Sequence record: NC_007856.1
DNA length: 5,486 bases
Reading direction: 5' to 3' (one strand)
DNA from: Enterobacteria phage ID18
Below the pieces are notes generated by a model, which did not search any database, was not told where the DNA came from, and worked only from the letters and a program-made list of their open reading frames with translations. The translations under genes were made by a program, and so were the position numbers. Below are positions 4 to 5,486 of the stretch, in pieces. The stretch's first letter is position 1, and each line of letters starts with the position of its first letter.

Positions 4-30
4 TTGACTAACTATCTCTTCACTTAACAT
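4..30 (+). promoter_or_regulatory. Candidate promoter pA (gene A promoter) in the H-A intergenic region
   Basis: -35-like TTGACT at 4-9; weak -10-like TAACAT at 25-30 with a 15-nt spacer. Position matches where phiX174 carries a TTGACA-containing promoter just upstream of the gene A hairpin. The -10 is poor, so the call is tentative. Confidence 0.3.
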
Positions 31-56
31 GCCTCCAAATCAACGGAGGCTTTTCT
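31..56 (+). terminator. GC-rich hairpin (GCCTCC / 8-nt loop / GGAGGC) followed by a TTTTCT run; candidate intrinsic terminator that also contains the gene A Shine-Dalgarno
   Basis: Seen directly: 31-36 GCCTCC pairs perfectly with 45-50 GGAGGC (6-bp stem, loop 37-44), followed by TTTTCT at 51-56. As I recall it, phiX174 has a near-identical GCCTCCAAATCTTGGAGGC-TTTTTT element immediately before the A start codon. Confidence 0.5.
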
Positions 57-58
57 AC

Positions 59-1729
59 ATGCAACAACACTTAACCGCTTCGGACTTCTACCGCAAACCA
101 ATAATCGACGCTATCAAACCTCTTGTCGAAACTGCTGGTATGTCTGTGCTAACTCAATCTCCTAACCTCCGTATCTGGAAACAGTGCAACACTCGCGTAA
201 AACTGCTGGAAGAAATTCTAAATCATTACACTAACGGTATTCGCCGTGATGATAATGGTGACTTCTTTCTCAACCCTGAATGCCAACTCGCCACTACAAT
301 TGCTTATCGTGCTCACAAAAAGGGCCATAACCCTCGCTTTAAACAATACCCTGAGTCATTCACTCTGGACGATATTATTACTGGCAAACCAATTCCTCAG
401 ACTGCCCCTTCTGAGCTTCAACTTACTGATGAAATCGGTGAGGATTACCGCCTTACTGTACTCTCCATAATCGAAGAGTTAGACGAATGCTACAACGTGC
501 TCGGACAACTTGATATTAATAACACTATAGACCACAAACCTATCGGTAACGCCAAATGGGACTTAATGTATGAAAAACCTGTCTATAAACACTGGTATGA
601 ACTGGTATCAAAACGACCCCTTAAATCAATCAGAGAGGACTACAACTATGCAAAGGCTAAGGGTACTAAAGATGAGTGCTCGAAAATCCTTGAGGAATCC
701 ACCATGAAATCCCGCCGTGGCTTTACCGTTCAGAGATTGATGAATGCTATGCGTACTGCCCACACTGATGGCTGGTATGTTGTATTCGATACTCTCACCT
801 TAGCTGATGATCGTATTAAGGACTTCTATGCTAACCCCAATGCTCTTCGTGACTATTTCCGTGATATTGGCCGTATGGTTCTCACTGCCGAGGGTCGTTC
901 GGTCCATGATTCATCTTCGGACTGCTATCAGTACTTTTGTGTGCCTGAGTATGGCACCCAGCATGGCCGTTTACACTTTCACGCAGTGCATCTTATGCGC
1001 ACACTTCCTTTGGGTTCTCTCGACCCTAACTTTGGTAAGCTGGTGCGTACTAATCGGCAAATAAATAGCTTGCAAAACACATGGCCTTATGGTTACTCTA
1101 TGCCCATCGCAGTCCGGTATTCTCAGGATGCTTTCTCTCGCGCTGGATGGCTCTGGCCTGTCGATACAAAGGGTGAACCCCTTAAATCCACCTCGTATAT
1201 GGCTGTAGGCTTCTACGTTGCTAAATACGTTAATAAAAAATCTGATGTTGACATAGCCGCAAAAGGCTTAGGGAATCAAAAATGGAACGCTACATTAAAA
1301 ACGCAGATGGCTCTTTTACCAAAGAAACTATTTCGAATTCGAATGAGCCGCAACTTCGGGATGAAACTACTCCCAATGACGACGCTGACCGCGGAGTGTT
1401 TAATCCAACTGACCCAAGTGGGTTACGACGTGACCCCGTTCAACAACATCTTGAAGCAGAACGCCAAGAAAGAGCTACGATTGAGGCTGGCAAAGCAATC
1501 TGTAGCCGACGTTTTGGAGGCGCAACCTGTGACGACCAATCTGCTAAAATTCATGCGCAATTTGACCCGAACAATCGGAGCGTCCAGCCTACAGAGTTTT
1601 ATCGCTTCAATGACGCAGAAATTAGCAAATACGGATATTTCTGATGAAACTAAAAACTACGTTACTAATGCAGGAATTGCTGTTGCTGACTTACGACTTA
1701 AATCGAAGTGGACTGCTGGTGGAAAATGA
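59..1729 (+). CDS. A: Replication initiation protein A (rolling-circle HUH endonuclease; viral-strand nickase/ligase)
   Basis: Long ORF (frame 2) strongly similar along its C-terminal two thirds to phiX174 protein A as recalled. HUH motif HFHAVH is encoded at about 974-991 and the catalytic YVAKY tyrosines at 1214-1228. Start placed at ATG 59, which has a GGAGG Shine-Dalgarno at 45-49 with 9-nt spacing; the track's ATG at 29 has none. Stop TGA at 1727-1729. Confidence 0.85.
506..535 (+). other. Viral (+) strand origin of rolling-circle replication (30-nt ori core, protein A nick site)
   Basis: Sequence CAACTTGATATTAATAACACTATAGACCAC is identical to the conserved phiX174/G4 origin 30-mer as recalled. 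Protein A is expected to nick between G512 and A513. It lies inside gene A, as in all phiX-like phages. Confidence 0.85.
704..1729 (+). CDS. A*: Protein A* (in-frame internal initiation product of gene A; 341 aa)
   Basis: In-frame ATG at 704 encoding MKSRRGF..., the same N-terminus as phiX174 A*, preceded by GAGG at 692-695. The predicted length of 341 aa equals the phiX174 A* length as recalled. Expression is inferred by homology. Confidence 0.65.
1070..1099 (+). promoter_or_regulatory. Candidate promoter pB (inside gene A, upstream of gene B)
   Basis: -35-like TTGCAA at 1070-1075 and a weak -10-like TACTCT at 1094-1099 (18-nt spacer), about 180 nt upstream of the B start. Position and sequence resemble the phiX174 region TTGCAAAATACGTGGCCTTATGGTTACAGT. 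Weak -10, so low confidence. Confidence 0.3.
1282..1644 (+). CDS. B: Internal scaffolding protein B (120 aa), encoded entirely within gene A in a different frame
   Basis: 120-aa ORF in frame 1 nested in A. The product has the conserved [20 protein letters not shown] and EFYRF...GYF C-terminal motifs of phiX174 protein B. Stop TGA at 1642-1644. Confidence 0.9.
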
Positions 1730-3928: not shown

Positions 3929-4462
3929 ATGTTTCAAACTTATCTCTCTAAACATAATTCTCCGTTAACTTCTCTGTCTATTACTGCTACAAAAACACCT
4001 GCGGCTGCTGCTCCGATTATTTCTACACCGGAGCTTAGCCGCTCTACTATTTTCGCTGGCTTAACTCTGACTGCTGCCACTACTCATTCTGGTGTCGCTC
4101 ATGTCGTTCGTATTGACGAAACCAATCCTACTGACAATCAGGTCTTATCGGTCGCCGCTTCTTTATCTGGCGTACCGTCTGATGCTATTGCTATTGCTAT
4201 TCGCTTTGAGGTCGCTGACGGTACCGTCCCTACTGCTCTCCCTGCTCTCTACTCTGCTTATCCGGTGGAATTCTTCACTTCTGGCGCTGCTCTGTCTTGT
4301 AAGGATGCCGTATCTATTCCGACGCATCCTGTTACTGCTGGTAATGATGTATATGCTGGTATTCTTATCTGGTCCAAATCTTGGTCCGCTGGTGTCGTCT
4401 CCGGCCTCTTATCTGTTAATCAGGTAAACCGTGAAACTACCGTACTCCAACCTCTTAAATAA
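3929..4462 (+). CDS. G: Major spike protein G (177 aa)
   Basis: ATG at 3929 preceded by TAAGGA at 3916-3921. The product begins MFQTYLSKHNS (phiX174 G begins MFQTFISRHNS) and ends ...SLNQVNRETTVLQPLK (phiX174 ...SLNQVIKEIICLQPLK). The track ORF starts at an upstream TTG (3884) and is over-extended. Confidence 0.88.
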   Translation: MFQTYLSKHNSPLTSLSITATKTPAAAAPIISTPELSRSTIFAGLTLTAATTHSGVAHVVRIDETNPTDNQVLSVAASLSGVPSDAIAIAIRFEVADGTVPTALPALYSAYPVEFFTSGAALSCKDAVSIPTHPVTAGNDVYAGILIWSKSWSAGVVSGLLSVNQVNRETTVLQPLK

Positions 4463-4472
4463 GGTCTAATCT

Positions 4473-5486
4473 ATGTTCGGTGCAATCGCTGGCGGTATCG
4501 CCTCCTCTCTCGCTGGTGGACTCCTGAACAAAGCATTCGGGGGCGGTTCTTCCGCTCCCCAATCTGGCGTTCAAGGTAATGTCCTCGCTACTGACAATAA
4601 TGTAATCGGTGCTAATGATGCTGGTATCAAATCCGCTATTCAGGGTTCTAATCCTCCCAATGGTCAACAAGCTGCTCCCAATGCTATATCGGGCGTTCTT
4701 GCCGATACTGGCAAAGACGCCCTATCTTCAATCACTGGCGCTGGCGTTAATAAACTTATGGAAAAAATCGGACTCTCTAAAGATGCTGCTGCTAAAGGTA
4801 AGGATACGAAAGATTATCTTGCTTCTGCGTTCCCCGAACTCAACCCGTGGGAACGTGCTGGCGCTGGTGCTTCTTCTGCTGGAATGGTTGATGCGGGATT
4901 CCAAAACCAAAAGGAATTAACTCGCATGCAGCTTGACAATCAAAAAGAAATCGCTAAGATGCAAAACGACACTCAAAAGGATATCGCTGGTATCCAGTCT
5001 GTTACTTCTCGGCAAAATACTAAGGACTCTGTGTATGCTCAAAACGAAATGCTCCAATACAACCAAAAAGAATCTATGTCACGCGTTGGCGCTATTCTCG
5101 AAAACACAAGCCTCACCAAACAACAACAAACTTCTGAAATTATGCGGCAAATGCTTACTCAGGCTCAAACCTCAGGTCAACACTTTACAAATGACCAAAT
5201 CCAAGAACTTACTCGAAAGGTCGGCGCTGATATTGATGCTGTTCGTGCTAACACTGAACGTACACATGTAGAAACGGACCGCTCTAAGCAGGAGGTCCAA
5301 AACTCTCGTTACGCTTCCTCACAAGTCGGTAAAACCGCCAAGGATGTATCAAATGTCATTAGTGACGCATCTTCTGGTATTGTTGATTATTTTCGTGGCG
5401 TTGATAAAGCTGTCGCGGATACTTGGAACAATTATTTCAAAGATGGCAAATCGGATGGGATAAGCTCAAACCATCGTACCAAATAA
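4473..5486 (+). CDS. H: Minor spike / DNA pilot protein H (337 aa)
   Basis: AAGG at 4461-4464, 8 nt before the ATG. The product is collinear with phiX174 H ([132 protein letters not shown]). Stop TAA is the last three bases of the window. Confidence 0.93.

Follow-up and report, generated by a model that had tools for sequence, protein, structure and literature searches.

The window analysed here is the complete genome of Enterobacteria phage ID18 (NC_007856.1; 5486 nucleotides (nt)), a G4-like microvirus (Gequatrovirus), and the subject of this analysis is the leader of gene A, which encodes the replication initiator protein gpA. All ID18 features described are on the plus strand. Over its first 1200 nt the genome is 97% identical to WA14 and to EMCL318, and the IMG/VR entry UViG 638275834 is identical to the ID18 genome across 3226 nt. 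Gene H ends with a TAA at positions 5484-5486, gene A is found at 59-1729, and the element considered here, at positions 4-61, sits between them on the circular genome; the order H then A is also seen in G4, phiX174 and alpha3. A mechanical list of open reading frames (ORFs) gives the gene A frame as 29-1729, with a product of 566 residues.

The element begins with a -35-like hexamer, TTGACT (4-9), followed after a 15-nt spacer by a -10-like hexamer, TAACAT (25-30); hexamers are found at homologous positions in related phages. The -10 hexamer directly adjoins a hairpin (31-50) consisting of a 5' arm, GCCTCC (31-36), that resembles an anti-Shine-Dalgarno sequence, an 8-nt loop, aaatcaac (37-44), and a 3' arm, GGAGGC (45-50). 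CCTCC (given as 33-37) pairs with GGAGG (45-49). A T-rich tract, ttttctac (51-58), connects the hairpin to an ATG at 59-61. Another ATG in the same frame, at 29-31, is preceded by cttcacttaac (18-28) and is formed where the final AT of the -10 hexamer meets the first base of the stem, a G. The two ATGs lie 30 nt apart with no intervening stop codon. The gene A frame has its 5' limit at position 8, set by a TGA (5-7) within the -35 hexamer, and because of this stop an N-terminal extension could only ever comprise the 10 codons from ATG 29.

The 20 nt upstream of each plus-strand ATG in the genome were scored for pairing with the 3' end of 16S ribosomal RNA. ATG 59 had the best score of all 133 ATGs, -9.5 kcal/mol, and GGAGG at 45-49 is its Shine-Dalgarno (SD) sequence, separated from the ATG by the 9 nt cttttctac (50-58). 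The score for ATG 29 was +2.0 kcal/mol, essentially the worst in the genome. An earlier reading of this DNA made without database searches (the sequence-only reading) had proposed that ATG 29 lacks an SD sequence, that GGAGG at this spacing serves ATG 59, and that a start at 59 yields a 556-residue protein. These proposals are borne out to the nucleotide, and the ATG 59 product is an exact match to the deposited ID18 gpA (AAZ49368.1 / YP_512788.1) and 99.5% identical to EMCL318 gpA. No record of the 566-residue form was found among approximately 15 billion public proteins.

Database annotation of related phages is uniform in the choice of start. The ATG that follows the hairpin is annotated as the A start at 59 in WA14 (gene A at 59..1729), 62 in EMCL318, 62 in ID2, 59 in G4 and 3981 in phiX174; the alpha3 and WA13 records place it at 759, and the records of ID8, NC2, NC10, ID204, FL68 and NC16 also annotate the homologous downstream ATG. 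The comparison with annotated G4-group A proteins (ID18, WA14, EMCL318, G4 and ID2) that had been suggested as a check favours the downstream ATG in every record, as here, although in G4 the two ATGs are 27 nt apart rather than 30. The start at 59 cannot be regarded as a correction, since the deposited ID18 annotation already uses it and our assignment does not differ from that record. With high confidence, we conclude that gene A starts at ATG 59, the second in-frame ATG, and that positions 4-61 are the ID18 version of the phiX174 composite of the gene A promoter and the gene H terminator, pA-T_H. ATG 29 is a by-product of this known promoter, terminator and ribosome-site hairpin and not a start codon. 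The ATG 59 start is already standard ID18 annotation, and the composite element has been described since the 1978 comparisons of phiX174 and G4.

The hairpin is a stable structure, with a predicted folding energy of -11.7 kcal/mol (z = -4.25; none of 200 shuffled sequences was as stable). Intrinsic terminators were sought as GC-rich stems of at least 5 bp with a loop of 3-8 nt and a U-rich 3' tract; the hairpin was called terminator-like on this basis, having 6 pairs (5 of them G-C), a loop of 8 nt and a tail, TTTTCTACAT, in which 5 of 8 bases are T. Since the gene H stop codon is 30 nt upstream of the hairpin, the hairpin is the presumed terminator that follows gene H, a homologue of T_H. The T-rich tract at 51-58 would thereby be both the U-tract of the terminator and the spacer between SD and ATG. 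The sequence-only reading had treated the hairpin as the context of the SD sequence; the SD does lie in the 3' arm, but the structure is more than that, being a known terminator that overlaps pA. A search of positions 1-300 with Rfam 15 covariance models gave no match at E-values of 1 or below.

The same arrangement is best documented in phiX174, where it reads tcATGCCTCCaaatcttGGAGGCttttttATG and gene A is annotated from 3981; the phiX174 arrangement given in the sequence-only reading, a hairpin followed by the true A start, is real. The phiX174 RefSeq record places a transcription start at 3962; this base is the loop's first A and lies 7 nt past the -10 hexamer TTTCAT (3950-3955). The upstream ATG of phiX174, at 3954, is 8 nt upstream of this transcription start. 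In Fig. S2 of Logel & Jaschke (bioRxiv 10.1101/2020.03.05.979765), adapted from Godson et al. 1978, the T_H stem-loop, downstream of the pA elements, is said to hold both the transcription start and the ribosome-binding site of gene A; the pA sequence is attributed in a listing there to Sanger 1977 and Sorensen 1998. The same preprint gives a net 0.29-fold change in transcription for the combined pA-T_H element in phiX174 and indicates that read-through of T_H occurs. Among the four phiX174 terminators, the T_H hairpin is given as the most stable by Zhao et al. 2012.

Both phages have the order -35, -10, G-CCTCC-loop-GGAGG-C, T-run and gene A ATG, with an identical stem, the same upstream in-frame ATG and the same position between the H stop and gene A. 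There are, however, distinct differences. The loop is 8 nt in ID18 and 7 in phiX174, and the distance from SD to ATG is 9 nt rather than 7. The U-tract of ID18 is interrupted (TTTTCTAC), whereas that of phiX174 is TTTTTT. The -35/-10 spacer is 15 nt in ID18 but 17 in phiX174, and the -10 hexamers are TAACAT and TTTCAT, respectively. Initiation and termination at this site are known in phiX174 from the record and the literature, whereas in ID18 they are assigned by homology. On that basis the ID18 A mRNA would start near A37 in the loop, 7 nt past the -10 hexamer, with a sequence beginning AAAUCAACGGAGGCUUUUCUACAUG, and would contain neither ATG 29 nor the 5' arm of the hairpin. A leaderless mRNA beginning at A29 was also considered and was rejected, as A29 and T30 lie within the -10 hexamer.

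The putative pA promoter is variable among relatives in both its spacing and its -10 region. The -35/-10 spacer is 15 nt in ID18 and WA14 and 18 nt in EMCL318, G4, ID2 and alpha3; EMCL318, though 97% identical, differs from ID18 and WA14 by 3 nt in this spacer. A consensus promoter scan of ID18 that allowed spacers of 16-18 nt did not call pA. Homologous -10 hexamers are TTTCAT in phiX174, TAATAT in G4, TATCAT in ID2 and TATATT in alpha3. The G4-like and phiX-like phages, Lilleen and nearly all alpha3-like sequences have the -35 sequence TTGAC(A/T) at the corresponding position; one relative, L040, has TTGGCA, and no TTGAC(A/T) was found at this place in the metagenomic relative L011.

Relatives for the comparison were taken from annotated records and from an A-protein alignment searched against IMG/VR, the latter irrespective of any hairpin. 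The stem comparison was made from hairpins aligned on their own, as MAFFT had misplaced the alpha3 5' arm when given the 48-nt upstream regions. All 60 cells of this comparison, which covers the six stem pairs in 10 distinct sequences from three genera plus two outliers, hold an intact pair, and this places the feature beyond chance. In the alpha3 clade two compensatory swaps are seen, U-A to C-G and C-G to U-A, giving the stem GCCCTC/GAGGGC, and an inner extension of 3-4 bp, which ID18 lacks, shows further covariation in alpha3-like loci. The alpha3 group (Alphatrevirus) otherwise resembles ID18, with a promoter (TTGACA, 18 nt, TATATT), a 3' arm that is also the SD sequence, a T-run and the ATG, but its element is located about 700 nt past the H stop, compared with about 30 nt in ID18. 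Distant microviruses (Mimer, PG19 and L044-L048) have no hairpin at this place and are not informative on the A start.

Every lineage that has the element places the -10 hexamer against the stem or within one base of it, and because the two adjoin, the junction triplet takes its first two bases from the end of the -10 hexamer, and its third is a G. This triplet is ATG in G4-like phages (-10 hexamers TAACAT, TAATAT, TATCAT and TATTAT) and phiX-like phages (TTTCAT). In alpha3-like sequences, with TATATT or TATAGT, it is TTG or GTG. Lilleen has one extra base (TCTAAT-A-GCCTCC), and its junction triplet is TAG. In L011 the sequence is TGA-ATC-GCCTCC, in which the in-frame triplet is ATC with an in-frame TGA directly before it. 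The distance from junction to start is 34-35 nt in alpha3-like sequences, 28 nt in Lilleen and 26 nt in L011, so that the upstream triplet of the alpha3 group is out of frame as well as not being ATG. In these three groups the triplet is out of frame or blocked, and in-frame stop codons are found in most alpha3-like loci and in Lilleen. Nevertheless, the hairpin is retained in all three, as are the start ATG, a purine-rich 3' arm at 6-9 nt from it, and the T-rich tract, which is common to all lineages. A check on conservation of ATG 29 had been proposed in the sequence-only reading: the upstream ATG is kept in frame in G4-like and phiX-like genomes and is missing in alpha3-like genomes, Lilleen and L011.

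The peptides that would be encoded upstream of the annotated start differ among the phages that have the upstream ATG (MPPNLGGFF, MPPIKRRLF, MPPNHRRLSY and MPPNQRRLFY). The invariant GGAGGC encodes Gly-Gly in phiX174, and in the G4-like phages it falls within Arg-Arg; the extension peptide is not conserved because this sequence is read in different frames in the two groups. Conservation of the upstream residues as protein had been named beforehand as the observation that would speak for ATG 29, and these frames and peptides show the opposite. As judged from these alignments, what is conserved is the RNA/DNA signal architecture and not a peptide. Positions 29-58 offer few variable sites, with half of the codons fixed by the stem.

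Three further observations were made on leader regions in this set. In one alpha3-like sequence (L031, IMGVR_UViG_2974698941_000001, approximately 655-732) about 29 nt are deleted, and with them the -10 hexamer and the hairpin's 5' arm (TTGACAG|ATAGTTTTACTACGAGGACTTTTTCGTATG); its SD region is found in a different small hairpin, and this is the only lineage seen to lack the composite element. In Pectobacterium phage Mimer (L020), a promoter-like site, TTGACG-18-TATCAT, is present upstream of gpA at approximately 500-520 and is followed by a G to give an ATG. This frame (ATG CGC ATA AAT TAA) stops after four codons and is another spurious start codon derived from a -10 hexamer. The record of Escherichia phage Lilleen (L023, MK629526) is linear, with 5342 nt and 6 annotated genes, and starts precisely with the ATG of gene A; as the A leader's promoter and hairpin are found in its last 60 nt, the record is of a circular genome linearised at the start of gene A.

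The arrangement of these signals suggests how a single hairpin could serve two transcripts. A σ70-type promoter (4-9 and 25-30) directly adjoins the 6-bp GC-rich hairpin (31-50) and its T-rich tract. For polymerases arriving from the upstream late genes, the hairpin would be an intrinsic terminator past gene H, and most would stop there. Polymerases starting from pA would begin transcription in the loop, at about A37, and their RNA would lack ATG 29 and the 5' arm. Because transcription would begin inside the loop, the GGAGG of the 3' arm would be free in this mRNA to act as the SD sequence for ATG 59. Read-through RNA, by contrast, would form the hairpin and hold the gene A SD in its stem. 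ATG 29 is only the AT that ends the -10 hexamer together with the G that opens the stem. A GC-rich stem with a short loop, a 3' U-rich tract and an SD sequence within the stem are also features of generic intrinsic terminators and SD-sequestering hairpins, an SD placed in this way being found in many translational operators; unlike these, the ID18 element has a promoter predicted to fire into the loop, so that the same DNA would give two RNAs, only one of which carries the 5' arm and can form the hairpin.

Folding energies are consistent with this scheme, as is the documented overlap of its parts. The predicted cost of opening the ribosome-binding site is about 3 kcal/mol in an RNA starting at A37, versus 9.4-13 kcal/mol in read-through RNA; for a ribosome footprint at ATG 29 it is about 12 kcal/mol. 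Opening energies were preferred to the mean unpaired probability of the SD sequence, which separated the two transcript forms poorly owing to a weak alternative pairing in the loop-initiated RNA. From these computed energies, pA-initiated and read-through RNA would most likely differ in translation of gene A. No experiment on differential translation of the two forms of A transcript was found.

A different view of the hairpin is that it is only a terminator and a stabiliser of late-mRNA 3' ends, its overlap with the SD having no regulatory effect on gene A. T_H is documented as a terminator, GC-rich CCUCC/GGAGG stems are common in terminators, and the idea of differential translation comes from computed energies. 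However, in every lineage the 3' arm provides a purine-rich SD at 6-9 nt from the start of gene A, even where compensatory stem swaps have changed GGAGG to GAGGG, and a transcription start within the loop is documented for phiX174. These observations make the view that the overlap is without effect unlikely, though it deserves some weight.

Several points weigh against an exclusive use of ATG 59 fed by a strong pA. The promoter may be unusually weak in the ID18/WA14 lineage, because its 15-nt spacer is outside the usual σ70 range; if so, read-through RNA, which contains ATG 29, would make up more of the A mRNA. Every G4-like or phiX-like lineage with the upstream ATG has it in frame and free of stop codons. 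This holds in three geometries of 27, 27 and 30 nt (loop/spacer sizes of 7/7, 8/6 and 8/9, respectively), a pattern mildly above expectation with a chance probability of roughly p = 0.1. Our search of the literature found no direct N-terminal, toeprint or ribosome-profiling data for protein A of these phages.

The proteomic evidence that might have served in phiX174 points elsewhere. In the assignments of Jaschke et al. 2019 the sole formylmethionine (fMet) peptide given to A is fMQGVEFDNGDMYVDGHK, which is seen only from the kleenX174 template. It maps to Met62 of phiX174 A (nt 4164), where it is preceded by Arg, and not to the annotated start. We have rejected this peptide as support for the A start, as an internal Met62 is uninformative on the choice between 3954 and 3981. 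The annotated start is thus unsupported by this fMet peptide, contrary to what Jaschke et al. 2019 state. Internal initiation in the recoded genome is one possible source of the peptide; ID18 A has no Met at the position aligned to phiX174 Met62.

These points do not call ATG 59 into question as the start and bear most directly on the possibility that both starts are used, with a minority of ribosomes initiating at ATG 29 on read-through RNA from the late promoters, adding 10 residues and melting the hairpin in passing; re-initiation past the H stop codon, 28 nt upstream of ATG 29, would be one route. Read-through of T_H in phiX174, sequestration of the ATG 59 SD in read-through RNA, a possible weakening of ID18 pA by its 15-nt spacer, and an upstream ATG that is in frame and stop-free wherever present, in three geometries, are all compatible with it. 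On the other hand, ATG 29 has no SD sequence, the 5' arm of the hairpin begins 2 nt past A29, and opening the footprint at ATG 29 costs the approximately 12 kcal/mol given above. The frame signal is statistically weak, coming from about three semi-independent geometries, and most Bullavirinae lineages do without the upstream ATG. Minority use of ATG 29 in ID18 is therefore very unlikely. The more general conjecture, that G4-like and phiX-like phages keep the junction ATG in frame for occasional use on read-through RNA, for example by re-initiation past the H stop, to make an extended A protein, is one to which we would give even less credence. If it were true, translation through the 5' arm could melt the T_H/SD hairpin, such melting could link A expression, or anti-termination, to the translation of late genes, and the route would possibly be more important in ID18 and WA14, given their 15-nt spacer.

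The proposal that ATG 29 is the main start of a 566-residue protein has next to no chance of being right: it is the first in-frame ATG past the upstream stop TGA (5-7) and its counterpart is conserved in frame in G4-like and phiX-like genomes, but it has no SD pairing (+2.0 kcal/mol), the phiX174 counterpart lies upstream of the mapped start of A mRNA, the codon is absent, out of frame or stop-blocked in the alpha3-like genomes, Lilleen and L011, which keep the rest of the element, and the extension is neither conserved as a peptide nor, as a 566-residue product, present in any database, and the comparative data already effectively refute it.

For ID18 itself, the assignment of gene A to ATG 59 serves mainly as quality control: a mechanical call of the first ATG places the gene A start 10 codons too early, and the start in the deposited annotation is correct. 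Knowledge of the Microviridae is unchanged by this result. A -10 hexamer that ends in AT beside the G of a stem creates a spurious ATG that is nevertheless conserved and in frame, and such codons can mislead gene callers. Within about 60 nt, the leader of gene A is a compact textbook case of a promoter, a terminator and a ribosome-binding site combined in one element.

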